Assembly: GCA_964598655.1 (NCBI GenBank) | Contig: CAZRCT010000003.1 | Span: forward strand, 49,006-113,005 | Direction of reading: 5' to 3' | DNA: 64,000 nt | DNA from: an uncultured Gemmatimonadaceae bacterium | Lineage (GTDB): Bacteria > Gemmatimonadota > Gemmatimonadetes > Gemmatimonadales > GWC2-71-9 | Shown: in pieces, positions 1,266 through 25,165 of the stretch | Position numbering within the stretch: the stretch's first letter is position 1 | Layout of the letters: every line of letters starts with the position of its first letter | Position numbers and translations under genes: made by a program | The notes under the pieces: model-generated | Told to the model about the DNA's origin: nothing | The model's input: only the letters and a program-made list of their open reading frames with translations | Database searches by the model: none

Positions 1266-2357
1266 TCACGCCGGCTCGAACACCCGCTGGGCGCGGGTGG
1301 CCGCGTACTCGGCGCGCGCCCGGGCGACGGCGTCGATGAGCGGGCTCGGATCGAAGCGCACCGGGTCGGTGCAGGGAAGCCCGGTCTCGCGGCTGGCGGC
1401 CTCGCAGGCGGCGCGGGCCTCGGCCTCGGTCATGTCGTAGGTGTTGAGCGAGATGCCGATGGTCTTCGTGGGGTGGACGAAGCCGGCGACGCCCTCGTAC
1501 AGCTTCACGTACTCCGAGAGCGGCGGGATCTTGAGCCAGCCGGCCTTGCGGTAGTCACCGATGTAGTCGCGCGTGGCCTGGTGGCAGAGGATGAGCGCGT
1601 CGGGGCAGGAGCCGTGCAGCAGCCCGCAGGTGACGCCCGAGTAGCCCGGGTGGTTGAGGCTCCCCTGCCCCTCCACCAGCACGATGTCGGCGTCCTTGCT
1701 CCCCTCGAGCACCAGCCACTCCGCGGCGCCGGCGATGAAGTCGGCCACCACGGCGTCCACCGCGATGCCCCACCCCTCGATCATGATGCCGGTCTGGCCG
1801 GTCGCCACGAAGCGGGTGCGCAGGCCCCGCTCATTGAGCTTCTTCGTGATCTGCAGCTGGCTCGTCATCTTGCCGACGTTGCAGTCGGTGCCCACCGTCA
1901 GGATCACGAAGGGCTCGACGTGCTTGGCCTTGCCGCTTGCCACGGGAAGGTTGGCGGGGGGGCGGCGGAAGTCGTAGATCTCGGTCCCCCGCGCCTTGGC
2001 GCGCGCGGCGATGGCCGCGTCGTCCCCGATGAAGGTGTGGAGGCCGCTCCAGATGGAGCACCCGGCGTCCACCGCCTCGAGCAGCCAGCTGCGCCACTCC
2101 TCCGGCAGCTTCCCCCCCACCGGGGCGATGCCGATGAGCACCGCATCCGGCTTGAGCGTGAGCGCCTCCGTCATGGAGCCGAGCACGGGCGTGGCCCCGC
2201 CGAAGCCGAGGACGTCCTGGACCGTCTTGCCGGCGTGCTGCCGGTCGAGGACGGCCGCGATCCGCTCGGGACGGTAGCGGATCACGGAGTTCGCGGTCTT
2301 GGAGGTGAGCGGGCCGAACTCGCCATCGGCGAGGATCAGGAAGCGGGAGCCGTGCAT
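1266..2357 (-). CDS. DUF1611 family protein (DgcN-like putative N-acetyltransferase)
   Basis: The ORF track gives 1266-2411. I prefer the internal ATG at 2357 (MHGSRFLILADGEFGPLTSKTANSVIRY), which matches the usual N-terminus of DUF1611 proteins. Family assignment is from memory of the family sequence. Confidence 0.7.
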   Translation of the reverse strand: MHGSRFLILADGEFGPLTSKTANSVIRYRPERIAAVLDRQHAGKTVQDVLGFGGATPVLGSMTEALTLKPDAVLIGIAPVGGKLPEEWRSWLLEAVDAGCSIWSGLHTFIGDDAAIAARAKARGTEIYDFRRPPANLPVASGKAKHVEPFVILTVGTDCNVGKMTSQLQITKKLNERGLRTRFVATGQTGIMIEGWGIAVDAVVADFIAGAAEWLVLEGSKDADIVLVEGQGSLNHPGYSGVTCGLLHGSCPDALILCHQATRDYIGDYRKAGWLKIPPLSEYVKLYEGVAGFVHPTKTIGISLNTYDMTEAEARAACEAASRETGLPCTDPVRFDPSPLIDAVARARAEYAATRAQRVFEPA

Positions 2358-2436
2358 GGGGCGTCGGGAAAGGGGAACAGGGGCGCGCGGAACCGGCCGG
2401 TAAGCTACCACGGGCAGCGGCGGGAGGGAACGAGAC

Positions 2437-2458
2437 GGGGGTGCCGGTTGGCACCCCC
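2437..2458 (-). terminator. GC-rich hairpin downstream of pspA
   Basis: GGGGGTGCC-ggtt-GGCACCCCC: a perfect 9-bp stem 27 nt after the pspA stop. No clear U-tract. Confidence 0.5.
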
Positions 2459-2484
2459 GTGGGCCTGCGCCGCCCGGCAGTGGG

Positions 2485-3255
2485 CTAGGCCTGCTTCCCG
2501 GGCTGGTCGTCGTCCACCAGCTCGGCGTCGATGGTGTCGCCGCGGCCGAGCTGGCGGGTCTCGCCGCCCTTGCCGCCCGGGCCGATGAGGCCCATCCGGG
2601 CCTTGAGCTCGAGCAGCTGCTGGTCGGGCGCGCCCTTGTACTCGAGGGCCTGGAACTGCTGCATCAGCTGGTCGCCCTCGAACTCGTTCTGCAGCTCGGC
2701 GGCGGCGATGGCCTTGCGCTCGTTCTGCTCAATCTTCTCGGTCATCCGCTCAAACGACTCGAAGGCCGACTTGTCGGACATCCCCGACATCGTCTCCTGG
2801 ATGCGCTGCTGCGCCTCCGCCCGCCGCGCCCGGGCAATGAGGATGTTCTTCTTGCGCTTGGCTTCCTCGATCTTGTCGTTGAGCTGGCGCAGCGAGGCCT
2901 TGAGGTTCTCGGTCTCCGCCTTGTGCTTCACCCAGGTCTCGTGGAGCTGCTGGGCGCCGGTCATGGCCTCGTTGTAGCGCATGAGCGCCTGCTTGGCCAG
3001 GTCGTCGCGGCCCTCCTGCACCGCGAGCATGGCGCGCCGCTCCCAGTCCTCGGCCTGCTTGCGCATGGCCTCGGCGTCGGCCTGGAGCTTCTTCTCGTCC
3101 GCGATGGCGCTGGCCACCTGCTGCTTGGCCTTGGCCAGCTGACCCTTCATGTCGATGATCAGCTGGTTCAGCATCTTCTCGGGATTCTCGGCGCGCGTGA
3201 TGAGGTCGTTGATGTTCGACCGGATCATCGTCGAGAGACGGTCAAAGATCCCCAT
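2485..3255 (-). CDS. pspA: PspA/IM30 family protein (phage shock protein A)
   Basis: 256 aa. The N-terminus MGIFDRLSTMIRSNINDLITRAENPEKMLNQLIIDM closely parallels E. coli PspA ([27 protein letters not shown]...). The rest is long coiled coil. Confidence 0.95.
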   Translation of the reverse strand: MGIFDRLSTMIRSNINDLITRAENPEKMLNQLIIDMKGQLAKAKQQVASAIADEKKLQADAEAMRKQAEDWERRAMLAVQEGRDDLAKQALMRYNEAMTGAQQLHETWVKHKAETENLKASLRQLNDKIEEAKRKKNILIARARRAEAQQRIQETMSGMSDKSAFESFERMTEKIEQNERKAIAAAELQNEFEGDQLMQQFQALEYKGAPDQQLLELKARMGLIGPGGKGGETRQLGRGDTIDAELVDDDQPGKQA

Positions 3256-3258
3256 GTC

Positions 3259-3651
3259 TTACTCCCGGAAGGGCGCCAGGGCGCCGAGGTGCGTGGCCAA
3301 CGCGAGCGTCAGGGAATCGAAGCTCGCCTCGAATTCGTTGAAGTCCAGGTTCTCCAGCTCCAGCGTGTCCACCAGCACCACGCGGTTGCCCTCGAGCCCG
3401 TAGGCGCCATGCACGAGGTCGCGGGCGTTGTACGCCAGGAGCGCGCGGAAGAGCGCCGCCTGCCGCTCCGCCCCCTCGGGCAGTTCCATGACGGCCACCC
3501 GCAGGATCACCACCGGCGGCGCGAAGTGTACCACCACCTCCGCCCCGGCGGTCGTCTTCACCAGCCAGAGGTTGGGCTCCACCTCGCTGACCTCGGCCGA
3601 GCCGCTGTCCAGCCGGTCGAGGAAATCCTCGATGTCTTCCTTGCCGCGCAT
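3259..3651 (-). CDS. YbjN / CesT-Tir chaperone-like protein
   Basis: The ORF track gives 3259-3681. The ATG at 3651 has GGGAGG 5 nt upstream. The alpha/beta pattern (LWLVKTTAGAEVVVHF...VVILRVAVMELPE...ALFRALLAYNARDLVHGAYGLEGNRVVLVDTLELENLD) is typical of YbjN-like folds. Assigned by resemblance only. Confidence 0.6.
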   Translation of the reverse strand: MRGKEDIEDFLDRLDSGSAEVSEVEPNLWLVKTTAGAEVVVHFAPPVVILRVAVMELPEGAERQAALFRALLAYNARDLVHGAYGLEGNRVVLVDTLELENLDFNEFEASFDSLTLALATHLGALAPFRE

Positions 3652-3698
3652 GCCTGCCTCCCGAATGGGGCCTGCCTGCAATCTAACCGGGGCCCGCG

Positions 3699-4022
3699 CT
3701 AGCGAGCCGCCGGCACCGCCTCGGGCGGGGTGTCCGCCTCGTCGTCCGCCCGGGGCGGCGCCACGAGCAGCCGCTCGGCGAACTCCAGCCGTTCCTCCAC
3801 CTCCCGCAGGCGGTGGGCCAGCGCGTCGAGCTCCTCCAGCCGCTCGGCCAGCAACTGCTCGGTCTCTTCCTTTTCCCGGATCGTCTGGTCGCTGCCGAAG
3901 GCCCCCATGATCCGCTCCGTGCCCCGCCCGATGGCCCGGCCGATGGGGCCGAGGAGCACCGCCACACTGATGGCGGCGGTCATCATCCAGAATCCGAGCG
4001 CGCCGATGCTGTCACCAAACAT
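3699..4022 (-). CDS. Array member 13: small TM + coiled-coil protein, ERLEFAERLL variant
   Basis: 107 aa with GGAGG 5 nt upstream of the ATG. Sequence: MFGDSIGALGFWMMTAAISVAVLLGPIGRAIGRG...REVEERLEFAERLLVAPPRADDEADTPPEAVPAAR. It shares the DEADTPPEA.PAAR tail with member 12. Confidence 0.8.
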   Translation of the reverse strand: MFGDSIGALGFWMMTAAISVAVLLGPIGRAIGRGTERIMGAFGSDQTIREKEETEQLLAERLEELDALAHRLREVEERLEFAERLLVAPPRADDEADTPPEAVPAAR

Positions 4023-4036
4023 GCCCGCCTCCGGGG

Positions 4037-4357
4037 TCAGCGCGCCGCCGGCAGCGCCTCGGGCGGGGTATCCGCCTCGTCGGGCAGTGCCAGCCGGTCC
4101 TGCCGTGTGAGGAGCCGCTCGGTGAAGTCGAGCCGCTCTTCCAATTCCACCAGACGGGATTCGCGGGCCTCCAGTTCCTGCATCCGGGCCCGCAGCTCCT
4201 CGAGTTCCGCCGGGGCCGCGGCGCCCGCACCGTGCTCGATCCGCCGGGCCCAGGCCACGACGAGCGGACGGACCAGGTACACCGCCGCACCGAGCATCAC
4301 GAAGCCCGCCGTCCCGGCGAGCAGCTGGTTCATCAGTTCCGGGGCAATCGCGAGCAT
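4037..4357 (-). CDS. Array member 12: small TM + coiled-coil protein, ERLDFTERLL motif
   Basis: The track ORF extends to 4396. The ATG at 4357 has GGAGG upstream and lies 1 nt after the member 11 stop. Sequence: MLAIAPELMNQLLAGTAGFVMLGAAVYLV...LVELEERLDFTERLLTRQDRLALPDEADTPPEALPAAR. Confidence 0.8.
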   Translation of the reverse strand: MLAIAPELMNQLLAGTAGFVMLGAAVYLVRPLVVAWARRIEHGAGAAAPAELEELRARMQELEARESRLVELEERLDFTERLLTRQDRLALPDEADTPPEALPAAR

Positions 4358-4358
4358 C

Positions 4359-4670
4359 TCAGCCTCCCCTCGGCAGCCGGGCCGCTTCATCGTCACGCTG
4401 GCGAGCCAGCAGGCGCTCGGTGAAATCCAGGCGTTCCTCGAGTTCGTACATCCGCGCCTGCTGGCCCTCGAGCTCCTGGACCCGGGCCCGCAGCTCTTCC
4501 ACCTCGACGCGGAGCGCGGGATCGGCGCCGCCCTCGGGCCCGCCGAGGCGCCGGCCCCAGCCCTGCATGACGGGCGTGAGCAGCCGGCTGCCGAGGAACG
4601 AGACGCCGAGCACCACCCCGATGAGGCTCATGGTCTCGCCCGGGCCCATCATGATCAGGCTCAGCAGCAT
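4359..4670 (-). CDS. Array member 11: small TM + coiled-coil protein, ERLDFTERLL motif
   Basis: 103 aa: MLLSLIMMGPGETMSLIGVVLGVSFLGSRLL...GWGRRLGG...MYELEERLDFTERLLARQRDDEAARLPRGG. Closest to member 10. Confidence 0.8.
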   Translation of the reverse strand: MLLSLIMMGPGETMSLIGVVLGVSFLGSRLLTPVMQGWGRRLGGPEGGADPALRVEVEELRARVQELEGQQARMYELEERLDFTERLLARQRDDEAARLPRGG

Positions 4671-4990
4671 CAGCCCGCCTTTCCCGGACCCAGCCGGCCC
4701 GGTTCCGCCTCACGCTGCTGCAGCAGCAGGCGCTCGGTGAAGTCCACGCGATCCTCGAGCTCGAGCAGCCGCTGCCGTTCCTCCTCGAGCTGCTGCAGGC
4801 GCGCCCGCATTTCCTCGAGATCCTCACGCAGGCGGGGGTCCGCCTCGCCGCTGTGACCCGCCAGCCGCCTGCCGATTCCCGTCATGATGGGGTGGAGCAG
4901 CTTGTAGGTCACGGTCATGGCGCCGAGGGCCATCACGGCGATGAGGATCCCCTCGCCGGGCCCCTGCAGCAGGACGAGCGCGAGCAGCAT
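4670..4990 (-). CDS. Array member 10: small TM + coiled-coil protein, DRVDFTERLL variant
   Basis: 106 aa: MLLALVLLQGPGEGILIAVMALGAMTVTYKLL...GIGRRLAG...LLELEDRVDFTERLLLQQREAEPGRLGPGKAG. Confidence 0.8.
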   Translation of the reverse strand: MLLALVLLQGPGEGILIAVMALGAMTVTYKLLHPIMTGIGRRLAGHSGEADPRLREDLEEMRARLQQLEEERQRLLELEDRVDFTERLLLQQREAEPGRLGPGKAG

Positions 4991-5361
4991 CAGTGCGGCC
5001 CTCCCGACTCAAGCCGGCTCACGTCCGCCTCCCGGTGCTGCACCAGCAGGCGCTCGGTGAAGTCCAGCCGCTCCTCGAGCTCAAGGACGCGGCCCTGCAT
5101 CTGCTCCAGCTCCGCCACGCGGGCCTGCAGGTCGGTGATCTCGTCCAGCGACGGTGGCGCCTCCCGCTGGGCGGCCAGCGCCCGGTTCCGGCGCCAGGCA
5201 AAGACGAACGTGGACAACGCGAAGATGCCGAGCACCACCTGGTCCTCGATCGCCGGGCCAGCCATCTCGGCGAGCATTCCCGCGAGGAAGCCGGTGGCCG
5301 TGAGGTGGATGATGACCTCCACGCCGTCCAGGCCCAGCGTCTGCTTGAGTCCCACGCTCAC
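4990..5361 (-). CDS. Array member 9: two hydrophobic segments + coiled coil, ERLDFTERLL motif
   Basis: 123 aa: ...VIIHLTATGFLAGMLAEMAG...VVLGIFALSTFVFAWRRNR...VLELEERLDFTERLLVQHREADVSRLESGGPH. ATGA overlap. Confidence 0.8.
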   Translation of the reverse strand: MSVGLKQTLGLDGVEVIIHLTATGFLAGMLAEMAGPAIEDQVVLGIFALSTFVFAWRRNRALAAQREAPPSLDEITDLQARVAELEQMQGRVLELEERLDFTERLLVQHREADVSRLESGGPH

Positions 5362-5717
5362 CCCTCCCCGGCTCCGAGACGTTCCGCCTCACGGTGGCGC
5401 ACCAGCATCCGCTCGGCGAAGTCCAGGCGCTCTTCGAGCTCGAGTACCCGCGCCTGCCCCTGCTCGAGCTCCGCCACCCGATCCTCGAGCTCCGCGACCC
5501 GCTGCGCCGCCACCTCCCCGGTGGTGTCGCCCCGCTCCAGGCCGGCGCGCCGGCGCCGCCACGCCAGCACCCCGAACGAGGCGAGGAACGCCACCGACAC
5601 GCCGATCTCCTCCTGCGGCTGGGTCATGGCGCTCAGCATGACGGCGGCCGCGATCGTGGCGCCCGACTGGATCAGGAAGTCGACGAAGTCGATCCCGACG
5701 TAGCGCCGGAAGCTCAC
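5358..5717 (-). CDS. Array member 8: two hydrophobic segments + coiled coil, ERLDFAERML variant
   Basis: 119 aa: ...SGATIAAAVMLSAM...IGVSVAFLASFGVLAWRRRRAG...VLELEERLDFAERMLVRHREAERLGAGEG. ATGA overlap. Confidence 0.8.
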   Translation of the reverse strand: MSFRRYVGIDFVDFLIQSGATIAAAVMLSAMTQPQEEIGVSVAFLASFGVLAWRRRRAGLERGDTTGEVAAQRVAELEDRVAELEQGQARVLELEERLDFAERMLVRHREAERLGAGEG

Positions 5718-6001
5718 GCGCCCCCCGGCCCGAGGCGCTCGGCCTCGCGCTGCTGGGCCAGGAGCCGCTCCGTGAAGTCCAGACGCTCCTCGAGCTCGGC
5801 CACGCGGCCGCGGAGGGCGTCCGAATCATCGAGGCGCGCCCGCAGGTCGGCGAGTTCCGCCTCGAGCTCGAGCGGGACGCCACCCTTGCCACGCTCCACG
5901 CGCTTGACCATGACGTTCACGAAGGCGATGACGGCATACACCGATGCCCCCGCCATGCCCATCCCGGCGAACACGCCGAACAGCTTGATGAACTCGTCCA
6001 T
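5714..6001 (-). CDS. Array member 7: small TM + coiled-coil protein, ERLDFTERLL motif
   Basis: 95 aa: MDEFIKLFGVFAGMGMAGASVYAVIAFVNVMV...VAELEERLDFTERLLAQQREAERLGPGGA. TGATG junction. Confidence 0.8.
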   Translation of the reverse strand: MDEFIKLFGVFAGMGMAGASVYAVIAFVNVMVKRVERGKGGVPLELEAELADLRARLDDSDALRGRVAELEERLDFTERLLAQQREAERLGPGGA

Positions 6002-6357
6002 CAGCCCTCCCCCGGCCGCAGGCGCTCCGGCTCCCGCTGCTGCGCCAGCAGCCGTTCGGTGAAGTCCACCCGCTCCTCCAGTTCCATGACCCGGTGCTGC
6101 AGTTGGTCCATCTCCGCGAGGCGGGCCCGCAGGTCCTCGACCTCCTGCCGCAGGGCACTATCCCCGGTGCCCTTTCCCTCGATTCGCCGCCCAAGCGCCC
6201 GCATCACGGGCCACAGGACCACCGTACACGCCGCCAGGAACCCCAGCGTGATCAGCAGGATCACGGGGGCGGGCATCACCTCCCACGGCGCCGGCGTGTG
6301 CGGGAAGTCCGGCAGCGGAGGCGGCTCCGGCACCTGGACCACAACTTGCCACATCAC
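6001..6357 (-). CDS. Array member 6: small TM + coiled-coil protein, ERVDFTERLL variant
   Basis: 118 aa with a Pro-rich N-terminal extension, then the TM helix PVILLITLGFLAACTVVLWPV, GRRIEG, and ...VMELEERVDFTERLLAQQREPERLRPGEG. ATGA overlap with the member 5 stop. Confidence 0.75.
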   Translation of the reverse strand: MMWQVVVQVPEPPPLPDFPHTPAPWEVMPAPVILLITLGFLAACTVVLWPVMRALGRRIEGKGTGDSALRQEVEDLRARLAEMDQLQHRVMELEERVDFTERLLAQQREPERLRPGEG

Positions 6358-6614
6358 GGCTCCCCTCCGGACAGCGACTCGCTCTCCCGCTTTGCGGTGA
6401 GCAGCCGCTCGGCGAAGTCCATGCGCTCGTGCAGTTCCGACACCTCGAGGCGCAGGCGCTCCACCTCCTCGAGCAGGGCCGGGTCGCCGGTCCCGGCCAC
6501 GCCCATGGGCCCGTGCCGGATCCGGTCGCTGATGGCCCGGCCGATGTCCGTCTTGGAAATGGCGATCAGCATGCCGCCACCAAAGACGATCAGGATGAAG
6601 AGGGTCCCCTCCAT
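6354..6614 (-). CDS. Array member 5: small TM + coiled-coil protein, ERMDFAERLL variant
   Basis: 86 aa: MEGTLFILIVFGGGMLIAISKTDIGRAISDRIRHG...LHERMDFAERLLTAKRESESLSGGEP. Closest to member 4. Confidence 0.8.
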   Translation of the reverse strand: MEGTLFILIVFGGGMLIAISKTDIGRAISDRIRHGPMGVAGTGDPALLEEVERLRLEVSELHERMDFAERLLTAKRESESLSGGEP

Positions 6615-6623
6615 CGGCGCCTC

Positions 6624-6875
6624 CTACTGCCCGTCGGGCAGTTGCTCGGCCTCGCGTCCGCGGGCCAGCAACCGCTCGGTGAAGTCCACCCGCTCCTGCA
6701 GCTCGGTCAGTTCCTGCCGCATCCGGTCCAGCTCCTCGTAGACCGCCGGGTCGCCCTCGGGGACCTCGCGGTGGCCGCGGATGCGGTCCGCGATCGCCTT
6801 GCCCACGGGGCTGAAGGAGATGGCGATGGCGGTGCCGCCGCCAAAGATCAGGATCAATGCGAGGATGTCTTCCAT
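6624..6875 (-). CDS. Array member 4: small TM + coiled-coil protein, ERVDFTERLL variant
   Basis: This is the C-terminal 83 aa of track ORF 6624-7154, starting at the ATG at 6875 (TGATG junction). Sequence: MEDILALILIFGGGTAIAISFSPVGKAIADRIRGH...LQERVDFTERLLARGREAEQLPDGQ. Confidence 0.8.
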   Translation of the reverse strand: MEDILALILIFGGGTAIAISFSPVGKAIADRIRGHREVPEGDPAVYEELDRMRQELTELQERVDFTERLLARGREAEQLPDGQ

Positions 6876-7147
6876 CAGGCTCCTTCTCCCGGCGTGCCGG
6901 ACCGGTCGCGGATCATCAGCCGCTCCGTGAACTCGAGCCGCTCCTGAGTTTCGGCGAGTTGCTGCTGCAGGCTCTCCATCTGCTCCCGCAGTGTCCCGAG
7001 GGCCGCCAGCACCTCGGGATCGGTCCCTGCCGCCGCCCGCCGCGCCTCGGTCTGCAGCCGAGTGATGGCCACGGCCCCCTTCATGATCAGACCGGTGATG
7101 ACCACGCCGCTCAGCATCCCGAGGATGGGAATCAGCTCGCCGGCCAT
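6875..7147 (-). CDS. Array member 3: small TM + coiled-coil protein, ERLEFTERLM variant
   Basis: 90 aa: MAGELIPILGMLSGVVITGLIM...AETQERLEFTERLMIRDRSGTPGEGA. Its start shares 1 nt with the member 2 stop (TGATG). Confidence 0.8.
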   Translation of the reverse strand: MAGELIPILGMLSGVVITGLIMKGAVAITRLQTEARRAAAGTDPEVLAALGTLREQMESLQQQLAETQERLEFTERLMIRDRSGTPGEGA

Positions 7148-7425
7148 CAGCCACCTCCCGGCAGGCGGTCGGGCGCCCTGCCTTGCGCCAGCAATCGTTC
7201 GGTGAAGTCCAGCCGCTCCTGCGTCTCCGCCACCTGGTGCTGCAGCTGATCCACCTGGTCCCGAAGCGCCTCGACGGCGGCGATCAGGTCGGGATCGGCA
7301 CCCGCCACCGCCTTCCGCCCCTCCGCCCAGCTGTGCGCGATACGGACCAGGCCGTAGGTCATGGTGCCGATCACCGCGATGCCGGTGAGCATGCCGAAGA
7401 CCGGCACGACCACCTCGGGGCCCAT
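7147..7425 (-). CDS. Array member 2: small TM + coiled-coil protein, ERLDFTERLL motif
   Basis: This is the C-terminal 92 aa of track ORF 7147-7740, starting at the ATG at 7425, 2 nt after the member 1 stop. Sequence: MGPEVVVPVFGMLTGIAVIGTMTYGLV...AETQERLDFTERLLAQGRAPDRLPGGG. Confidence 0.8.
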   Translation of the reverse strand: MGPEVVVPVFGMLTGIAVIGTMTYGLVRIAHSWAEGRKAVAGADPDLIAAVEALRDQVDQLQHQVAETQERLDFTERLLAQGRAPDRLPGGG

Positions 7426-7427
7426 CG

Positions 7428-7706
7428 TCAGCCTCGCGGCAGCTGCTCGGGCGTCCTGCCCTGCGCCAGCAGCCGCTCGGTGAAGTCGAGCCGTTCCTGC
7501 GTTTCCGCCAGCTCGTGCCGCACCCCGTCCAGCTCCTGCCGCAGGTCGGCCACCTCGCCCCGGAGGAGATCCACGTCGCCCCCGCCGCCGCCCGGGCCGG
7601 ACCGGATCCGGTGGGCGATGGCCTTCCCGATTTCCGAGCGGGAGATGAACACCGCCCCGACCGTCAGGAAGAACGTCATCGGAATCAGGACTTCGGGTCC
7701 GGACAT
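7428..7706 (-). CDS. Array member 1 of 13 (transcription order): small TM + coiled-coil protein, ERLDFTERLL motif
   Basis: The ORF track starts at a TTG (7721). The ATG at 7706 has GAGGCCGAGG upstream and aligns with member 2 (MSGPEVLIPMTFFLTVG vs MGPEVVVPVFGMLTG). C-terminus: AETQERLDFTERLLAQGRTPEQLPRG. Confidence 0.8.
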   Translation of the reverse strand: MSGPEVLIPMTFFLTVGAVFISRSEIGKAIAHRIRSGPGGGGGDVDLLRGEVADLRQELDGVRHELAETQERLDFTERLLAQGRTPEQLPRG

Positions 7707-7827
7707 CCTCGGCCTCGGCAACTTGTGGGAATCGGATCACCCGTGTGGCACCCTGCGGTCCACCAGGGTCAGGGCAGTACGGAGAGATGTTTCAGCCTGT
7801 TTCATAGGCTGACAGGCCAGTTTCCGG

Positions 7828-8715
7828 TCAGTTCTTGGACTTCCCCTTGATCTGGACCAGCCGCTCCCGGGCCAGCTTCCGGCCGGTGGGGGTGGCGGCC
7901 AGGCCGCCCCCGGCGGTCTCCCGGTAGCGGACATCCATGCTCCGGCCGATCTCCCCCATGGTGTCGATGACCTCGTCCACGGGGATGGGGAAGCGGACGC
8001 CGGCCAGTGCCATCTCGATGCCGGCGAGGGCCATCGCGGCCCCGGTGGCGTTCCGGTAGACGCACGGCACCTCGACCAGCCCGCCGAGCGGGTCACAGAC
8101 GAGCCCCAGGGTGCCCTGCATGGTGAGCGCGACGGCGTGGACCGCCTCCTCGGGTGTGCCCCCCAGCAGCTCGACCCCCGCGCCCGCCGCCATGCCAGCC
8201 GCCGCCCCGGTTTCCGCCTGACAGCCGCCTTCGGCCCCGGACAGCGAGGCCCGCACGGCCACCACGGCCCCGATGAGGCCGGCCGTCGCGAGCGCCCGCA
8301 CGAGGGCCTCGTCCGTGACCTGCCGATGACCGGCCAGCCCAAGCAGCACGCCCGGGAGCACACCGGCCCCACCCGCCGTGGGGGCGGCGACGATCACGCC
8401 CATGGCGGCGTTCACCTCCTGCACTGCCAGCGCCCGGGCGATGGCGTCGGTGAACACGGTGCCGGCGAGAGGGCCGCGGGCGTGGGTCATCCGGTTGGCG
8501 TCGCCGCCGACGAGGCCGCTGACGCTCTTGAAGTCACCGGGGAGGCCCTGGTCCACGGCGCCACGCATCACCTTGAGCGCCCGCGTGAGCGCCGCCTCCA
8601 CTTCCGCGCGGCTCCGGAGCCCGGCGTCCACCTCGGCGCGCAGGGCCACCTCGCCGAGCGAGATGCCGTCGCGCTCGGCCTCGGCGAGGGCGTCGGCCAG
8701 GGCGGTGATCCTCAT
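7828..8715 (-). CDS. sdaAA: L-serine ammonia-lyase (iron-sulfur dependent), alpha subunit
   Basis: 295 aa, Gly/Ala-rich SDH_alpha-type sequence. It follows the beta subunit directly with a 4-nt overlap. Confidence 0.9.
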   Translation of the reverse strand: MRITALADALAEAERDGISLGEVALRAEVDAGLRSRAEVEAALTRALKVMRGAVDQGLPGDFKSVSGLVGGDANRMTHARGPLAGTVFTDAIARALAVQEVNAAMGVIVAAPTAGGAGVLPGVLLGLAGHRQVTDEALVRALATAGLIGAVVAVRASLSGAEGGCQAETGAAAGMAAGAGVELLGGTPEEAVHAVALTMQGTLGLVCDPLGGLVEVPCVYRNATGAAMALAGIEMALAGVRFPIPVDEVIDTMGEIGRSMDVRYRETAGGGLAATPTGRKLARERLVQIKGKSKN

Positions 8716-9377
8716 GCGATCCTCGGGATGGAGCGGAGGAAGCGGACCGCCGAGAGGGCGCGGATGGCCTGCATGGCCTCCTCGCTGGCGGGGCGGTCCA
8801 GTTCGTAAATGTGGATGGCGTCGCCGCCCTTCTTGGCGCGGCTCACCTTGAGCGTGGCGATGTTGTCGCCCTGGCGGGCGAGGGCTCCGGTCACGGAGGC
8901 CACGATGCCCGGGGTGTCCTTGGCCACGAAGACCAGGGCCGGGAAGGCGCCGGTCACTTCCACCCCGTAGCCATCGATCTCGGTGATCTGGATGCGGCCC
9001 GCGCCGAGGGAGGCGCCCACCACCACGGCCTTCCGGCCGTCGCGCACCAGGGTGAGGCGCGCGGTGTTGGGGTGGTGCTCACCGCGGAGCTTGGTGTTCT
9101 CGAAGGTGAGCTGGACGCCGGCCTGCTCGGCCAGCTCGAGGCTCTGGCGGAGGCGCTCGTCGTCGGGATGGAAGCCGAGGAGGCCGCCGGCGATGGCGCG
9201 GTCGGTGCCGTGCCCGGTGCCGGTGCGGGCAAACGACCCGTGGAGCTCCACCAGCGCCGTCTCCGGCTGCCCGCCGGCCAGCTCGCGGGCAAAGAGCCCG
9301 ATCCGGCAGGCCCCCGCCGTGTGCGACGACGAGGGACCGACCATGACCGGGCCAATGATGTCGAGGAGGGAAACCAT
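8712..9377 (-). CDS. sdaAB: L-serine ammonia-lyase, beta subunit (with ACT-like C-terminus)
   Basis: 221 aa. The N-terminus MVSLLDIIGPVMVGPSSSHTAGACRIG is the conserved SDH_beta start. Confidence 0.9.
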   Translation of the reverse strand: MVSLLDIIGPVMVGPSSSHTAGACRIGLFARELAGGQPETALVELHGSFARTGTGHGTDRAIAGGLLGFHPDDERLRQSLELAEQAGVQLTFENTKLRGEHHPNTARLTLVRDGRKAVVVGASLGAGRIQITEIDGYGVEVTGAFPALVFVAKDTPGIVASVTGALARQGDNIATLKVSRAKKGGDAIHIYELDRPASEEAMQAIRALSAVRFLRSIPRIA

Positions 9378-9432
9378 GGGCCAAACCTATAGGGGAGCGT
9401 GGGAAAGGGAAACGCGCCCCCGCGCCCCCGCC

Positions 9433-9648
9433 TCAGATCAGCTCCACCTCGCGGATCTCCCCCAGGCTCATGGCGATCTCGGTCGCGTCGTCGTCGAGGG
9501 GGTGGAGGTAGACCTCGTGTGCGGTGATGTGGGTGTCCACGCTGGTGGGGATCCCGGTGATCTCGTGCCGGTCGGCGGTCACGATCCGCACCGCCCGCTC
9601 GTTGCTGTTGGCGTAGCCCAGGACGGCGACGATCTGCTCGTAGGTCAT
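9433..9648 (-). CDS. Hypothetical small protein
   Basis: The track ORF is 9433-9693. The probable start is the ATG at 9648 (MTYEQIVAVLGYANSNERAVRIVTADRHEITGIPTSV...). No family recognised. Codon usage fits the genome. Confidence 0.5.
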   Translation of the reverse strand: MTYEQIVAVLGYANSNERAVRIVTADRHEITGIPTSVDTHITAHEVYLHPLDDDATEIAMSLGEIREVELI

Positions 9649-9709
9649 GGCGTCCTCCGGGTTGGGGTGACCCTCCGAATGTAGGAGCCCCACCCGCCCG
9701 GGGCGAGGC

Positions 9710-11563
9710 TCACCCGATCATGGCGATGAACCCGTCCCCGGCGTCGGGGCGCGGGGGTGGCGGCGGCTCGGGCGGGGGTGCAGCCCCGAAGACCTGGGCC
9801 GACCGGATGTTGGCCTCGATCGCGGTGAGCATGCCCTCGATCTCCTCCAGCGCCTTGCGGAGGGCGAAGGGGTACGCGAGCCGGTAGCCCATCAGGCTGA
9901 GGCCCCCCAGCACGGCCGCGCCGCCCAGCGCCGGGAGGGCCGCGAGGGCCCCAAGGCCGAGGGCGGCAAACCCCACGGCCCCACCGACGGCGGCGCCCCC
10001 GGCAGCCACGCTGCCGGCGATCCAGTAATCGACGACGAGGTTCTTGCGCAGGCCGGGGCGGAGGTCGCCGTAAACGGTCACCTCGGTGCCACCGCCGCCG
10101 GCCGCGACGGGGTGCAGGGTGACGTTGAGCTGGAAAGCCTCCAGCTGGTACATGCGGTAGGTGAAGGGCGTGTACGACTCGAGGGTGCCCGCCCCGGAGA
10201 GGCCGCCCTTCATGAAGTTGGGCACCTCGAACACCAGCACCCCGCCGCTGAACGGATGCCCCCCCACCGTGTCGCGCAGCCGGAGGAGGTAGGGGCGCGC
10301 CGTGACCACGCGTCCCATGGCCTCGAGGGTGACCTTGGGGCTGGCCTTGATGCGGCGCGAAACGGAGAAGCTCCGCTGCTCGGTGCCAAGGAGCCGGGTG
10401 ATGCGCCGATCCTCGCGCGTGCCGCCGGCGGGCACCGGCCGGCCCGGGGCCCGGTCGCCCGGCTGCTCGGCGAGCGCCAGCGCCACAAACTCCGGCGCGA
10501 TGCCCACCTCGGCCGCCGCCAGCTCCACGTCCTTCAGCCGGTAACCGCCCGTCGGCAGCGAGGGCGAGATGCCGGTGAGCCCGCCTTCCTGCGAGCGGAG
10601 CTGGAGCCGGGTGGCCGCCTCCGCCTGCAATTGCGCCGCCCGGAGCCAGATGGCCTGCGCCTGGTCCTCGGCGATGACGCGGTCGGCGGACGTGACGGCG
10701 GCCAGCTGGGTGGCCGACCGCTCCAGCGCGAGCGCCAGCGCCTCGGCGAGCGCTTCGCCGGTCATGAAGCGCGCCTCCGGCTCGCGGGCCAGGCAGCGGT
10801 CGATCACCTCGACCAGCGGGCGGGGCACGGTGGTGGTCAGGCTGGCGAGGGACGGGGCCTGCCGGCTCGCCACGGCCACGAGCACCGCGGCGGCGTTGTC
10901 GCCCTCGAAGGGGAGGCGGCCGGAGAGCGCATAGAAGCCGGCGACGCCGAGCGAGTAGAGGTCGCTCCGGCCGTCGAGGGGCTGGCCGTTGGCCTGCTCG
11001 GGGCTCATGTAGTGGACCGTGCCGACGACCTCCCCCTGCTGCGTGAGAGACGAGGCCGACTGGTCCCGCGCGATGCCGAAGTCCGTGACCACCGCCCGCC
11101 CGGTGGCGCGCTCCACCATGATGTTGGCGGCCTTGATGTCGCGGTGCACCACGCCGCGCGCGTGCGCGTACGCCAGCGCCCACGCCGCCTCCCGGAGGAT
11201 CCGCACCACCTCCTGGGGCGGCAGCGGCCCGCGGTCGCGCACCCGCTCGGCCAGGTTCTGGCCGTCGATGTAGGCCATGGTGAAGTACGCGAACCCGCCC
11301 ACCTCCTCGGCCCGGTAGATCGGGACGATGTTGGGATGGGAGAGCTGGGCGGCAGTGCGGGCCTCGCGGAGGAAGCGCTCCCGCACGCCCGGCAGCGCGC
11401 CGAGGTGGGGCGGCAGCACCTTGATGGCCACGGGGCGCTCGAGGCGCGCCTCGCGGGCCAGGTACACCACGCCCATGCCGCCCCGGCCAAGCTCGCGCTC
11501 GAGGGTGTACTGGCCCGCGAGCAGCGGGGCGAGCTGTTCAAGGATCGCGTCGGGCGAGGTCAT
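9710..11563 (-). CDS. Ser/Thr protein kinase with large C-terminal extension and C-terminal membrane helices
   Basis: 617 aa with Hanks kinase motifs (GRGGMGVVYLA, AIK, HRDIKAANIMV, DFGIAR, SPEQ). Gly/Ala-rich hydrophobic segments lie near the C-terminus. Confidence 0.9.
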   Translation of the reverse strand: MTSPDAILEQLAPLLAGQYTLERELGRGGMGVVYLAREARLERPVAIKVLPPHLGALPGVRERFLREARTAAQLSHPNIVPIYRAEEVGGFAYFTMAYIDGQNLAERVRDRGPLPPQEVVRILREAAWALAYAHARGVVHRDIKAANIMVERATGRAVVTDFGIARDQSASSLTQQGEVVGTVHYMSPEQANGQPLDGRSDLYSLGVAGFYALSGRLPFEGDNAAAVLVAVASRQAPSLASLTTTVPRPLVEVIDRCLAREPEARFMTGEALAEALALALERSATQLAAVTSADRVIAEDQAQAIWLRAAQLQAEAATRLQLRSQEGGLTGISPSLPTGGYRLKDVELAAAEVGIAPEFVALALAEQPGDRAPGRPVPAGGTREDRRITRLLGTEQRSFSVSRRIKASPKVTLEAMGRVVTARPYLLRLRDTVGGHPFSGGVLVFEVPNFMKGGLSGAGTLESYTPFTYRMYQLEAFQLNVTLHPVAAGGGGTEVTVYGDLRPGLRKNLVVDYWIAGSVAAGGAAVGGAVGFAALGLGALAALPALGGAAVLGGLSLMGYRLAYPFALRKALEEIEGMLTAIEANIRSAQVFGAAPPPEPPPPPRPDAGDGFIAMIG

Positions 11564-13986: not shown

Positions 13987-14119
13987 GCGGATCGTGGGAC
14001 AGGGTGAATCATCGAGGGGCTGGGTGGGTGCCCCGACGGCACCGCCCGCAACGAGTTTCAGCGCGGCCGGTACGGAAACCTAGCCCGGGCAGCCTGGCGT
14101 GGAGAGGGGTGCCGGCCAG

Positions 14120-16777
14120 TCAGGGCTGGCGGCGGGACGCGGTATCGGCCAGCTCGGCACGGAAGCGGTCGGCGGCAGCGAGCTCACCGAGGGAGTCGAA
14201 GGCAGCCACGAGGTCGCGCCGGGCGGCGCGGACGAAGCTGGTGGCGGGGTCGGTCTGCCGGACCAGGATGTCATAGCCGGCGCGCGTCTCGGCGATCGCC
14301 GCACGATACCGGCCCTGGCGCAGCAGGGACCGTCCCAGCTTGATGTGCCCGATGCCGGCGTTGACGTGGCCCGGCGGCAGGATGCTGTCGTAGATGGCGA
14401 GCGCCTCCCGGAAGAGCGGCTCCGCGCCGCGTGGGTCCCCCCGCTGCATCACCACGCTGGCCACGTTGGCGAGGGCCACGGCCACGAACTGGTGGTACTC
14501 GCCCAGGGTGCGGCGGTAGATCCGGAGCGCCTCACGAAAGCGTGCCTCCGCCACCGGGTAGTCGTCCACGGTCCAGGCCACATTGCCGAGCTCGTTCAGG
14601 GCCTCCGCCACCTGCGGATGCTCCGGCCCGTAGACCCGCCGCTGCACCGCGAGCGCCTGGTCGAGCGCCGCCACGGCCTCGGGGATCCGCTTCTGGTAGG
14701 TGAGCGTGCGGCCCAGGCGGGTCAGGTTGGCCGCCACCTCGGGGTGGGCCTCGCCGTACCAGCGCCGGGTGATGTCCAGCGCGCGGGCGTAGAGCGACTC
14801 GGCGGCGGCGTAGTGGCCCAGCATGAGCTGCACCTCGCCGAGCGCGGCCAGGTCGCTGGCCACGTCGGGGTGGCGCGGGCCGTGGCGCGCCGCATCGAGG
14901 TCCAGCACCGCGCGGCCCAGGGTGTCGGCGAGCGGGTAATCCCCGGCGTAGAAGTGGGCCTGGGCCAGCTCGCGCAGGTGGGTGGCGTGCTCCGGCGGCG
15001 CGCCGCCGGCGGTGGCGTCCTGCTGCACCAGCGCGGCCAGCAGGGTGATGGCCTCGGGGTAGCGACCGCGCTTCTGCAGCACCTGCGCCAGCGTCACGGT
15101 GGCCTCGGCCACCACCGGATGGTCGGCCGGCATGGTCCCGCGTCCCCGGGCGAGGGCGTCGCGCGCCAGCGAATCGGCCTCGGGGAAGCGGGCCTGCGCC
15201 AGCCGGAGCTGCGCCAGCGCCACGAGGCTCCGGACCAGCGCCGGATCCTGCGGCGCGACGCGGGCGCGCCGCTGCGCCAGCGCCCGGCCGAGCAACGTAT
15301 CCGCGCGCTCGAGCTGCCCCAGCCGCTGGAAGACGCTGCCGAGCGTCTGCAGGAGCTCCTCCTGCACCGCCGGCTCCCGGTCGAGCGCCGAGGCGTCGCG
15401 CACCCCGCCCTCGAGCAGCGACACCACCCGCAGACTCTCGGCCGGCGCCACCGCCGCCTCGCCCCCCTGAAAGAGGCCGAGCATGAATTCCTGGATGCGG
15501 GCCCCGCGCGCGGCCTCGGCGAGCGCCGCATTGCGGGCCTGGGCCAGCCGGAAGGTGTAGAAGCCCACGAGGGACACGACGACCAGCACCACGAGCGACA
15601 CCGCGGCGGTCGCGGCGGCGTGGCGGCGAAGGAACTTGCCGAGCCGGTAGCCGAGCGCATCCGGGCGCGCCTCGAGCGGCTCCCCGGTCAGGAAGCGGTC
15701 GATCTCGGCGATGAGGGCATCCACGCTGCGATAGCGCCGGGCCGGGTCGGGATGGAGGGCGGTGAGGCAGAGCACGTCGAGGTCCGCCCAGGTGGCGGAG
15801 CCGACGGCGGACCAGAGCTCGCCGGCGCGCCCGGCCACCTCGCGCGCGGCCAAGGAGGGACGCACGGGCGGGCCGCGCAGGACCAGCCCGGCCGCGGCCT
15901 CGGGCGTAAGCCCCGCGAGGTCGAACGGCAGGCGGCCGGCGAGCAGCTCGTAGAGGACCACGCCCAGCGCATAGACGTCGGTATGCACGCCGATGCGCCC
16001 GCCGAGGAGCTGCTCGGGCGCGGCGTAGCCCGGGGTGAGCGCGCGGAGCCCGGTACGGGTCTGGTCGGCCGGCAGGTCCACCGCCTCGAGCTGCTTGGCG
16101 ATGCCGAAGTCGAGCAGCTTCACCACGCCGTCGGCGCGGACCAGGATGTTGGAGGGCTTGAGGTCGCGGTGGATCACGGCGTGCTCGTGGGCGTGCCGGA
16201 CGGCCTCCGCGACGGTGCGCAGCAGCTGGAGCCGTTCGCGCACGGGGCTCCGCCGCCCTCGGCACCACTCGGTGAGGGGCAGCCCGTCCACGTACTCCAT
16301 GGCGAACCACGGGGTGCCGTCGGGCAGCATGTCCGCATCGTACAGGCGCGCGATGCCTGGATGGTTGAGCTGGGCCAGGGTGCGCTGCTCGGCCCGGAAG
16401 CGCTCGCGCCGCGCGGGGGAGAGCCAGGCGTCGGGGAGGATCTTGATCGCCGCCTGGGTGCGGAGGTCGGCGCGCTCGGCCAGGTAGACCACGCCCATGC
16501 CGCCCTCGCCGAGGATCCGGAGCAGGCGGTAGGGACCGAAGAGCTGGCGGCGGACGGGCTCGTCCACGCGGCCCACCACCACCTCCGCGGCGCCGGCGAG
16601 GCCGCGGTCCAGGAGCGAGTCGCCGCCGGCGTCGGCGGCCAGCATGCCGAGGACGAGTACCGCCAGCTCCATGTCGGCGCCGGCCCGGGCGCGGACGTGC
16701 GCCTCGCGCGCCGGGGCGTCCAGCGCCAGCGCCTCGTGGAACACGGCCTGGATCTCGTCCCAGCGGGCGCGCTCCAT
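14120..16777 (-). CDS. Ser/Thr protein kinase with one TM helix and C-terminal TPR repeats
   Basis: The track ORF runs to 17173. The real start is the ATG at 16777 (MERARWDEIQAVFHEAL...), 5 nt after the sigma factor stop. It has a kinase core (GEGGMGVVYLA, HRDLKPSNILV, DFGIAK), then a TM helix (AAVSLVVLVVVSLVGFY), then many TPR-like repeats. Confidence 0.9.
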   Translation of the reverse strand: MERARWDEIQAVFHEALALDAPAREAHVRARAGADMELAVLVLGMLAADAGGDSLLDRGLAGAAEVVVGRVDEPVRRQLFGPYRLLRILGEGGMGVVYLAERADLRTQAAIKILPDAWLSPARRERFRAEQRTLAQLNHPGIARLYDADMLPDGTPWFAMEYVDGLPLTEWCRGRRSPVRERLQLLRTVAEAVRHAHEHAVIHRDLKPSNILVRADGVVKLLDFGIAKQLEAVDLPADQTRTGLRALTPGYAAPEQLLGGRIGVHTDVYALGVVLYELLAGRLPFDLAGLTPEAAAGLVLRGPPVRPSLAAREVAGRAGELWSAVGSATWADLDVLCLTALHPDPARRYRSVDALIAEIDRFLTGEPLEARPDALGYRLGKFLRRHAAATAAVSLVVLVVVSLVGFYTFRLAQARNAALAEAARGARIQEFMLGLFQGGEAAVAPAESLRVVSLLEGGVRDASALDREPAVQEELLQTLGSVFQRLGQLERADTLLGRALAQRRARVAPQDPALVRSLVALAQLRLAQARFPEADSLARDALARGRGTMPADHPVVAEATVTLAQVLQKRGRYPEAITLLAALVQQDATAGGAPPEHATHLRELAQAHFYAGDYPLADTLGRAVLDLDAARHGPRHPDVASDLAALGEVQLMLGHYAAAESLYARALDITRRWYGEAHPEVAANLTRLGRTLTYQKRIPEAVAALDQALAVQRRVYGPEHPQVAEALNELGNVAWTVDDYPVAEARFREALRIYRRTLGEYHQFVAVALANVASVVMQRGDPRGAEPLFREALAIYDSILPPGHVNAGIGHIKLGRSLLRQGRYRAAIAETRAGYDILVRQTDPATSFVRAARRDLVAAFDSLGELAAADRFRAELADTASRRQP

Positions 16778-16782
16778 GGGGG

Positions 16783-17319
16783 TCAGGCGCCGGGGCGGAG
16801 CGCGTGGGCGAGCCAGGCGCGGGCGGCGCGCCAGTCGCGCAGCACGGTGGCCTCGGAGACGCCGAGCAGCTCGGCGATCTCCGGCACCTCGAGGCCGCCG
16901 AAGAACCGGCCTTCGACCATTGCGGCCTGCCGCGGGCTCACGCGGGCCAGCGTCTCCAGCGCCTCGTGCAGCCCCAGCACCTCGGCGGGGGTGGTGGCGG
17001 CGCCCTCCATGGCGTCGTCGAGCGTCACCGGCATGTCCCCGCCGCCGCGCTTGTCGGCCAGCCGCCGGCGCGCGGCCTCCACCAGCACCTGGCGCATGGC
17101 CCGGGCGGCCACCCGCTTGAACTCCAGCCGCGAGAGCCGCCCCACGGCCGGGGTGGCGGCCAGCTTGAGCCACGCCTCGTTGACCAGCGCGGTGGGCGTG
17201 AGCGTCACCTGCCGCTCCCCCCGGCGCACGGCGCCCGCCAGCCGCTTCAACTCCTCATAGGCGACCGCGAAGAGCCGGTCCACCGCCAGACGTTCGTCGT
17301 CCGGAACCATGGTCACCAT
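16783..17319 (-). CDS. ECF-type RNA polymerase sigma factor (TIGR02999-like, kinase-associated)
   Basis: This is the C-terminal 178 aa of track ORF 16783-18879. Sequence: ...LFAVAYEELKRLAGAVRRGERQVTLTPTALVNEAWLKL... plus a region-4 HTH (EIAELLGVSEATVLRDWRAARAWL). Confidence 0.85.
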   Translation of the reverse strand: MVTMVPDDERLAVDRLFAVAYEELKRLAGAVRRGERQVTLTPTALVNEAWLKLAATPAVGRLSRLEFKRVAARAMRQVLVEAARRRLADKRGGGDMPVTLDDAMEGAATTPAEVLGLHEALETLARVSPRQAAMVEGRFFGGLEVPEIAELLGVSEATVLRDWRAARAWLAHALRPGA

Positions 17320-21781: not shown

Positions 21782-21822
21782 GACTCGAAGGTACCCCGCC
21801 CCGCCCCGAGGCGCGAGCAGGC

Positions 21823-24687
<2,865 letters not shown>

Positions 24688-24769
24688 AAGCCGGGAAACG
24701 TACCGGCACGAGGCATCGCGCTTCAACCCCGGGCCCGCGGCGGGGCCCGGGGCATCCCCCCATCGGGGG

Positions 24770-25165
24770 TCAGCCGCCCAACAGGCGGACCAGCGCCACG
24801 AGGATGAAGAGCACCACGGGCCAGTGGCCGAGCACCCAGCGGACCGCATTCCGGACGGCGTACCCGGCCAGGTACCACGCCCCGTGCCCGAGCCCGATGC
24901 CGGCGCCGATGGCCATGAGGTAGAGGGGGATGTTGAGCGGCCCGAGGCGCTCCGTGGGCAGCGCCCGCGAAAGGACCATGAGCGCCAGCGCGATCCCGAG
25001 CGCGCTCAGCACGAAGACGATCACCCGGCCGGCGGTGAACTGGGCGCCCTTGCGGACATCGAGTTCCTGCTCCAGGCGCAGCCGGTCCTCGAGGCGCGCC
25101 AGCTCCACGTCGGAGAGCTGCTCGAGCTCGTCCTCGTTCACGTAGTAGTCGGTCAGCCCGAACAT
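24770..25165 (-). CDS. Hypothetical membrane protein
   Basis: 131 aa with an acidic N-terminal helix and then 3 hydrophobic helices. Sits 1 nt downstream of the preceding gene. Confidence 0.55.

Follow-up and report, generated by a model that had tools for sequence, protein, structure and literature searches.

What are thirteen consecutive genes for small, mutually related membrane proteins doing directly upstream of pspA, the gene of a membrane-repair protein? The question is raised by a 64,000-nt stretch of contig CAZRCT010000003.1 (positions 49,006 to 113,005; hereafter the window) from an uncultured Gemmatimonadaceae bacterium, in which a 15-gene unit on the minus strand, spanning 2435–7804, comprises 13 intact paralogs (83–123 aa), a CesT_Tir_1/YbjN-like gene and pspA, and ends in a GC-rich hairpin. 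According to the published view, every studied PspA system needs its own integral membrane receptor (PMC8581546). We propose, with a probability of roughly 0.5, that the unit represents a type of envelope-stress operon found across Gemmatimonadales, an order of soil bacteria, driven by an extracytoplasmic function (ECF) sigma factor, in which the array would supply membrane receptors or sensors for PspA. Gene content, operon structure, the conservation of promoter and terminator, family size, predicted topology and the age of the paralogs can be read from the sequences compared here.

The elements of the unit follow one another as the initial annotation had described, namely 13 paralogs, the YbjN/CesT-like gene, pspA and the hairpin, and each was found on the minus strand where it had been placed. 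The largest internal gap, put at about 47 nt, measures 47 nt and separates the last paralog from the CesT-like gene. All other junctions lie between −4 and +14 nt, with the CesT-like gene and pspA 3 nt apart, and 8 of the 14 gene junctions overlap by 1 or 4 nt. The hairpin 3′ of the pspA stop codon is likewise present, but the 9 bp reported at 2458–2437 are only the GC core of a terminator-like 11-bp hairpin at 2435–2460. With junctions this tight, a conserved ECF-type promoter at one end and a terminator at the other, the 15 genes ending in the CesT-like gene and pspA do appear to form the single unit that had been suggested. Gene calls made independently on short ENA contigs with an identical PspA agree with ours (107, 130 and 256 aa). 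No Rfam match was found at 2000–10000, and neither the paralogs nor the CesT-like protein nor small86, a conserved gene further upstream, matched a defence system in PADLOC.

Almost every start codon of the unit has a GGAGG-like Shine–Dalgarno sequence in front of it, embedded in the Gly-rich codons with which the gene before it ends. At the junctions within 3699–7706, GGGAGG or GGAGG encodes the Gly-rich paralog tails (..PGEG, ..GGG, ..GGEP) and is at the same time the Shine–Dalgarno site of the next gene. Because these Gly codons serve both purposes, part of the conserved ‘RL..G..’ tail of the paralogs may owe its constraint to the RNA and not to the protein.

The 13 paralogs align over their whole length and share five invariant residues, E, R, F, E and R (E..R..F.ER), within ...ELEERLDFTERLL.... 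A profile built from them matched more than 7,600 proteins in a 90%-clustered collection, none of which carries a Pfam domain, and the family comprises at least 3,147 clusters at 50% identity with E ≤ 1e-3, 797 of them with E ≤ 1e-10. Library searches found no Pfam or NCBIfam model for it. All named members come from Gemmatimonadota. The consensus of 614 members consists of a transmembrane (TM) segment, the juxtamembrane sequence P-[ILV]-G-x-A-x-A-R-R-x-x-G, a linker, and ...LR.R[VL]..LE....R[VL].ELEERLDFAERLLAQ.R...RL..G. Within the ELEERLDFAERLL motif, R is conserved in 100% of these members, F in 99%, and the following E and R in 99.7%.

Basic residues (K+R) are about 10-fold enriched after the hydrophobic segment, with 3.2 per 12 residues against 0.3 before it; the paralogs are therefore predicted to be N-out/C-in, with the motif helix in the cytoplasm. 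An AlphaFold2 monomer of paralog 10, based on 146 homologs, consists of two helices (residues 2–33 and 44–77; mean predicted local distance difference test score 88). Each paralog has one hydrophobic segment, except paralogs 5 and 6 (4990–5717), which have two and may span the membrane twice, thereby changing the orientation of the N-terminus.

Is this arrangement a peculiarity of one genome? A genome scan yielded 80 related loci, all from Gemmatimonadota and mostly from metagenome-assembled genomes (MAGs) of Gemmatimonadales. A same-strand array of 1–14 copies runs directly into the CesT-like gene and pspA in 66 of the 80, and in 6 more the array abuts pspA without a CesT-like gene, which brings the total for array plus PspA to 72; of the remaining eight, four are truncated where a contig ends, and four consist of a lone copy without a nearby pspA. 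The initial annotation had let its proposal hinge on co-occurrence with pspA in other genomes, and co-occurrence is what these counts give, together with one locus (L055) where the flanking genes differ. The expansion that it had singled out is not confined to this genome: copy number ranges from 1 to 14 across the order, complete arrays most often have 3, 4 or 7 copies, and the 13 copies of the window are near the maximum.

The unit begins with an element resembling an ECF promoter of the sigmaW type (7778–7804, minus strand), in which a −35 TGAAAC (7804–7799) and a −10 CGTA (7781–7778) are separated by a 17-nt spacer. It lies 24 nt past the sdaAA stop codon and 71 nt ahead of the ATG of paralog 13, the first gene of the unit. 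TGAAAC and CGTA are the −35 and −10 consensus of sigmaW promoters in B. subtilis (PMC5758882), where pspA itself is under a sigmaW promoter (PMC8581546). The looser pattern GAAAC-N15-18-CGTA has a single match in the 64-kb window, against 0.12 expected by chance. Across the 80 related loci (2.43 Mb, both strands), TGAAAC-N16-18-CGTA has 64 matches, and 58 of these sit 8–147 nt 5′ of the first gene of the array, in every case past the gene before it (small86 or sdaAA). The two elements, −35 (T)GAAAC and −10 CGTA, 16–17 nt apart, thus recur at a conserved position 5′ of orthologous operons. The motif was missed by a scan for consensus sigma70 promoters and terminators, which found no promoter in the unit, only a chance-level hairpin on the plus strand, and no coding-strand terminator inside the unit.

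At the other end, a folding free energy of −50 kcal/mol (z = −3.3) was obtained for the 90 nt past the pspA stop codon. In most related loci, too, pspA is followed by strong GC hairpins, frequently with T tails (median free energy −40 kcal/mol over 90 nt), and it is their position that is conserved, not their sequence. Since a conserved ECF-type motif stands 5′ of the array and hairpins stand 3′ of pspA, the predicted transcription unit consists of promoter, array, CesT-like gene, pspA and terminator.

A second (T)GAAAC is found inside the promoter spacer in those loci where sdaAA lies upstream, in the form GAAACA-N4-TGAAAC-N7/8-CGTA (19 loci, among them L001, L002, L003, L005 and L024; 7787–7804 in the window). 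This copy could serve as another −35 element that overlaps the first, or as a binding site.

Several observations weigh against reading the unit as an ECF-driven PspA receptor operon. First, the loci come from one phylum and most share 10–20 kb of synteny, consisting of DPP (dipeptidyl peptidase), small86, the array, the CesT-like gene, pspA, DUF1611 and an ABC ATPase, so that the raw co-occurrence count overstates the independent support. Second, there are solitary family members away from pspA (e.g. in L065, L071 and L078). Third, the ECF motif fails to precede most of the array in about 8% of loci: it lies between the array and the CesT-like gene in L060 (10530) and L077 (10268), and precedes only the last one or two copies in L056 (10048), L068 (11049) and L075 (2744). 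Fourth, the hairpin of the window has only a weak T tail. Finally, the figures for motif conservation are partly circular, because the ELEERLDFAERLL motif was the search pattern with which the loci were retrieved and is weighted by the family hidden Markov model (HMM).

Some independent support is nevertheless restored, because insertions occur only outside the unit, the junction between array and pspA survives the loss of the CesT-like gene, and the trio is kept in L055. No inserted gene was found between the array and the CesT-like gene or pspA in any locus, and insertions of sdaAB–sdaAA occur only upstream of the promoter. In L055, a divergent MAG of lower GC content, the flanks are uvrA, a permease gene and cysS, and still one family member, the CesT-like gene and pspA stand in a row. 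These facts bear directly on the explanation that the adjacency is merely synteny conserved within one order, with no functional coupling. Such an explanation would account for the DPP, small86, DUF1611 and ABC flanks being conserved in most of the 80 loci as well, but not for the overlapping start and stop codons, the single promoter and single terminator of the unit, the restriction of insertions to its outside, or the trio in L055 among unrelated flanks, and we regard it as already disfavoured and highly improbable. Functional coupling of the array to PspA is, on balance, likely.

The displaced motifs suggest that the position of the promoter relative to the array shifted during evolution in a minority clade. 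Three of the loci concerned (L056, L068 and L075) also have no CesT-like gene, and a large ABC gene lies upstream in all five except L075, which gave no ABC hit. As to the solitary members, the one in L065 (9995–10243, 82 aa, type A-like, as defined below) is convergent with a gene for an FHA-domain/trypsin-like protease and lies near a PP2C phosphatase gene; because it lies away from any pspA, the family also occurs outside Psp operons.

If the array proteins serve PspA, are they recent copies of one another or separately maintained genes? Identity among the paralogs of this genome is 27–60%, and several have colinear positional orthologs in other species at 55–79%. Recent tandem amplification is ruled out by these values, with paralogs at 27–60% against up to 79% for positional orthologs elsewhere. 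Three types recur across loci, and their order A...B...C is conserved. Type A (FGGG...P[IV]GKAIADRIRG) is usually the first gene and is the sole copy in L055; it corresponds to paralogs 9 and 10 of the window. Paralog 8 represents type B (WP.MRA..RR.EGKG), and paralog 1 type C (LFGPIG.A..RR), the last copy before the CesT-like gene. Copies 2–4 of the window resemble lineage-specific duplicates. Because orthologs from different species are more alike than paralogs of the same genome, and the order of types is conserved, individual copies appear to be maintained by selection, and the array is apparently a set of old, individually maintained genes.

The known protein that the paralogs most readily call to mind is PspB of the enterobacterial pspABC(DE) operon (PF06667/TIGR02976), and the initial annotation had described them as PspB-like. 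The E. coli PspB sequence that it quoted is correct (74 aa, ...RMRERIQALESILDAEHPNWRDR), and the comparison stands as far as architecture goes: both proteins are small (74 versus 83–123 aa), have one N-terminal TM segment, an N-out/C-in orientation and a cytoplasmic C-terminal helix, and are encoded in the same operon as pspA. The paralogs are thus PspB-like in their predicted architecture. Membership in the PspB family does not follow, as scores remain below curated cut-offs. Were the paralogs true, very divergent PspB homologs, they would be signal-transducing regulators or effectors of the Psp response, multiplied and without PspC, a possibility that overlaps with the receptor role proposed here.

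The profile comparisons point both ways. Among NCBIfam models, TIGR02976 (PspB) was the one most frequently matched, by 83 of 146 diverse family members at E ≤ 10 (best 1.1e-6), in near-global, colinear alignments covering profile positions 4–68 of 75, whereas none of the 146 shuffled controls, in which the TM segment and the remainder were shuffled separately, matched PspB. The Pfam model PF06667 matched 17 of the 146 (best E 0.0034, below its cut-off). Scored with the family HMM, real PspB sequences reached a median of 11.3 bits, compared with 3.2 for block-shuffled and 2.1 for reversed ones, and gap-free alignments with PspB, running from TM segment to LE..LD motif, were obtained for some members, with the common pattern R.R[IV]..LE..LD. 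Against this, the best TIGR02976 score among the 146 members is about 26 bits, short of the curated cut-off of 51.7 bits, and the only match between the paralogs of the window and PspB models is one copy against TIGR02976 (E 0.22, 11.8 bits). Comparing the family (468 sequences) with a PspB profile by hhalign gave a probability of 32% (P 4.7e-4) over 15 columns; this profile was confined to enterobacteria, as the searches for building it returned almost only enterobacterial sequences (72–100% identity), with one Aeromonas match at 50%. Shuffled sequences could also score well, one reaching 4e-6 against GspM and one shuffled PspB reaching 15 bits with the family HMM.

Nor did the proposed motif correspondence survive closer alignment. 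The initial annotation had set ERIQALESIL against ERLDFTERLL, but hhalign and most HMM alignments prefer RIQALESILD against RVAELEERLD, a register that is itself weakly supported. The invariant F and the second E-R of the family lie past the end of the PspB helix and have no counterpart there, the paralogs carrying an invariant ...F.ERLL extension that is absent from PspB.

PspB was, furthermore, not the only source of sub-threshold matches. Among the same 146 members, 68 matched the N-terminus of GspM (NF040576, up to 1.5e-5), 45 matched CcmI and 30 matched MtrG, and since these match comparably, a TM segment followed by an amphipathic helix evidently gives such signals without homology. GspM- and PilO-type N-terminal regions do share with the paralogs a TM segment and a coiled-coil-prone helix. 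GspM has a membrane topology opposite to that predicted for the paralogs, which makes homology with it unlikely, and no secretion or pilus genes were found among the characterised neighbours. Whereas NCBI labels the named members of the family ‘hypothetical’, some carry the JGI label ‘PilO’ or ‘PilN’; these names look like mis-annotations, as proteins of 83–123 aa leave no room for a globular C-terminal domain.

The genomic context differs from that of pspABC, too. The array genes lie 5′ of pspA in 1–14 copies behind an ECF-type promoter, whereas pspB is a single-copy gene 3′ of pspA, accompanied by PspC and controlled through PspF and sigma54. In the window, a sigma54 motif scan found none near the unit and overall fewer matches than expected by chance. 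The reported absence of PspC and PspF agrees with our searches, as no open reading frame of the window was matched by E. coli PspC, PspF or PspD in phmmer searches at E ≤ 1, Lia-type partners not having been searched for separately. In Yersinia, the C-terminus of PspC contacts PspA. Taken together, we consider distant homology of the paralogs to PspB doubtful, though by no means negligible. If it were real, PspB would extend well beyond Proteobacteria and could work without PspC; a published survey describes PspB as rare outside Proteobacteria and notes that PspB duplicates occur (PMC11237479).

The two remaining proteins of the unit are assigned more easily. The CesT/Tir-like (YbjN-like) protein, with a chaperone fold (3259–3651, minus strand, 130 aa), is encoded immediately 5′ of pspA and matches PF22550 (CesT_Tir_1) at 1.7e-28, above the 27-bit cut-off; its match to YbjN PF10722 (0.0017) is below the cut-off of that model. 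PspA/IM30, the bacterial ESCRT-III (2485–3255, minus strand, 256 aa), matches PF04012 (PspA_IM30) over its full length at 2.1e-48, residues 2–220 corresponding to profile positions 1–217 of 220. It is 29% identical to E. coli PspA over 225 residues (2e-21) and closer to it than to YjfJ.

The presence of a chaperone-fold gene directly after the array invites another explanation, since CesT/Tir-fold proteins are chaperones for specific partners. The small proteins could be stress-induced membrane proteins in their own right, either clients of the CesT-like chaperone or coiled-coil membrane scaffolds, with PspA merely co-expressed through the same ECF sigma factor. The solitary members without pspA and the minority of loci in which the ECF motif comes only after most of the array would fit this, as would a PDB sequence search with the family profile, which gave generic coiled coils only (MukB, SYNZIP, GCN4). 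What renders it improbable is that the six loci without a CesT-like gene keep the array, with an intact motif, abutting pspA, that the trio persists in the different genomic context of L055, and that thousands of otherwise diverged paralogs keep an almost invariant charged motif (E, E, R, D, F, E, R), which suggests one specific partner in common and not a generic action on the membrane. Because the motif is kept in loci without the CesT-like gene, PspA or self-association is favoured as that partner.

Parts of the locus have been described elsewhere. A conserved CesT/Tir–PspA dyad, with the CesT/Tir gene immediately upstream of pspA, has been published as a gene neighbourhood (Ravi et al. 2024, mSystems, PMC11237479), and the window has the same pair, PF22550 followed by PF04012. 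The published contexts of the dyad include genes for band-7/flotillin, AAA+ ATPase, YqiJ/YuaF or spermidine-synthase-like proteins (PMC11237479). No array of small proteins with a TM segment and a coiled coil is described in that study, and its main text does not mention Gemmatimonadota; the published dyad is, moreover, tied to pspA of the yjfJ type, whereas the PspA of the window resembles E. coli PspA more than YjfJ. Popp et al. 2022 (PMC9239133) mention neither Gemmatimonadota nor ECF promoters. Both surveys are based on domains, and the family, having no model, was therefore invisible to them. What the locus adds to the known pair of CesT-like protein and PspA is an ECF-type promoter and a family of small membrane proteins that has not been described before, is very large and is unusually expanded.

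The closest functional analogue is the sigmaW-controlled pspA-ydjGHI operon of B. subtilis, in which PspA depends on small integral membrane proteins to reach the membrane (PMC8581546). It shares with our unit the TGAAAC...CGTA ECF promoter and the co-encoding of pspA with small integral membrane proteins. It differs in that no SPFH protein was identified adjoining our unit, in which the membrane genes precede pspA and belong to a single expanded family; nor did the family-library matches reveal homology to YdjG/H/I or LiaI, which also sets the unit apart from LiaI/LiaH. The array proteins would be analogous to PspB/PspC of enterobacteria, LiaI of Bacillus and YdjG/H of the B. subtilis sigmaW pspA operon.

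How might such an operon work? In the scheme that we favour, an ECF sigma factor resembling sigmaW and activated by envelope stress would transcribe the whole unit as one translationally coupled transcript ending at the hairpin; both the identity of this factor and the stimulus are what we infer from the locus. The array proteins would insert as single-pass N-out/C-in proteins, with a short N-terminus outside, the TM segment, the juxtamembrane P-[ILV]-G-x-A-x-A-R-R-x-x-G sequence and a helix of about 35 residues carrying ELEERLDFAERLL in the cytoplasm. The common motif helix would engage PspA, either directly or via the CesT-like protein as an adaptor (a physical link that is, again, presumed), and the ESCRT-III-like PspA polymer would assemble at the membrane via the array proteins. 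The diverged TM and N-terminal parts could confer different sensing or targeting specificities or serve the assembly of hetero-oligomers. That the array proteins act as receptors or anchors falls just short of an even bet. A bolder version, which we consider rather unlikely, is a combinatorial system unrelated to PspB/PspC, in which up to 14 anciently diverged receptors would share the docking helix ELEERLDFAERLL for PspA, with the CesT-like protein as adaptor, while their sensor ends would target different kinds of membrane damage or lipid states.

The ECF-type promoter that drives the operon also brings to mind a role in controlling the sigma factor itself, with the array proteins being membrane-bound anti-sigma or anti-anti-sigma-like regulators instead of partners of PspA. 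A single-pass protein with a cytoplasmic helix is a typical anti-sigma design, but the cytoplasmic domain is C-terminal in the array proteins and N-terminal in classical anti-sigma factors, and 3–14 diverged anti-sigma paralogs per promoter class would be unprecedented. Searching the window by jackhmmer with RpoE as query revealed no ECF sigma gene, nor do the related loci carry one consistently. The motif region did give a match to the anti-sigma factor NepR, which could be taken as a lead, but at E 0.5–0.7 it is at noise level and was rejected. We give this explanation very little credence.

A receptor role for the array proteins would have wider consequences. PspA/Vipp1 is the bacterial ESCRT-III, and the locus offers a candidate receptor family for its membrane targeting beyond a few model organisms. 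The family has a short, near-invariant motif that can be mutated or used as bait, and it provides a natural series of copy numbers from 1 to 14. Assigning a sigmaW-like ECF promoter to a Psp operon also yields a concrete regulon motif in a phylum with essentially no known regulation.

The individual copies, all on the minus strand, are numbered here from the CesT-like gene upwards, so that transcription would begin with paralog 13 (7428–7706), which encodes 92 aa from an ATG preceded immediately by GAGG, with a possible upstream TTG start at 7721. It is followed by paralog 12 (7147–7425, 92 aa) and paralog 11 (6875–7147, 90 aa). Of the two type A copies, paralog 10 (FGGG...PVGKAIADRIRG; 6624–6875, 83 aa) is the best conserved across species, at up to 79% identity, and paralog 9 occupies 6354–6614 (86 aa). 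The type B copy, paralog 8 (WPVMRALGRRIEGKG; 6001–6357), has 118 aa when read from a GTG, and its true start may be later. Next come paralog 7 (5714–6001, 95 aa) and the two copies with an extra N-terminal hydrophobic segment, both starting with GTG, paralog 6 (5358–5717, 119 aa) and paralog 5 (4990–5361, 123 aa). Paralogs 4 (4670–4990, 106 aa), 3 (4359–4670, 103 aa) and 2 (4037–4357, 106 aa; also called on the ENA contigs) lead to the type C copy, paralog 1 (LLGPIGRAIGRG; 3699–4022, 107 aa). Paralogs 1 and 2 (3699–4357), nearest to the CesT-like gene, have the tail DEADTPPEALPAAR in common; in these two an acidic, Pro-rich tail (DEADTPPEA[VL]PAAR) replaces the usual RL..G.. ending.

Upstream of the promoter, two L-serine dehydratase genes, sdaAA (7828–8715) and sdaAB (8712–9377), lie on the same minus strand. 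About a quarter of the loci have them inserted after small86, ahead of the array promoter, and the rest lack them, a clean indel by which the upstream limit of the Psp unit can be recognised. The small86 gene (9433–9693, minus strand) encodes 86 aa without a Pfam match, is present in 55 of the 80 loci and, where sdaAB–sdaAA is absent, typically lies directly upstream of the array promoter. Since the ECF motif invariably lies 3′ of small86 and of sdaAB–sdaAA, neither was counted as part of the unit. Further upstream, genes for Ser/Thr protein kinases are clustered on the minus strand (9710–11563, about 14100–17250 and about 20150–24770). The first kinase combines a Pkinase match (1e-45) with a weak, sub-threshold C-terminal match to a Polyketide_cyc2-like domain (E 0.0023), and one of these upstream kinases is part of the conserved neighbourhood in 15 of the 80 loci.

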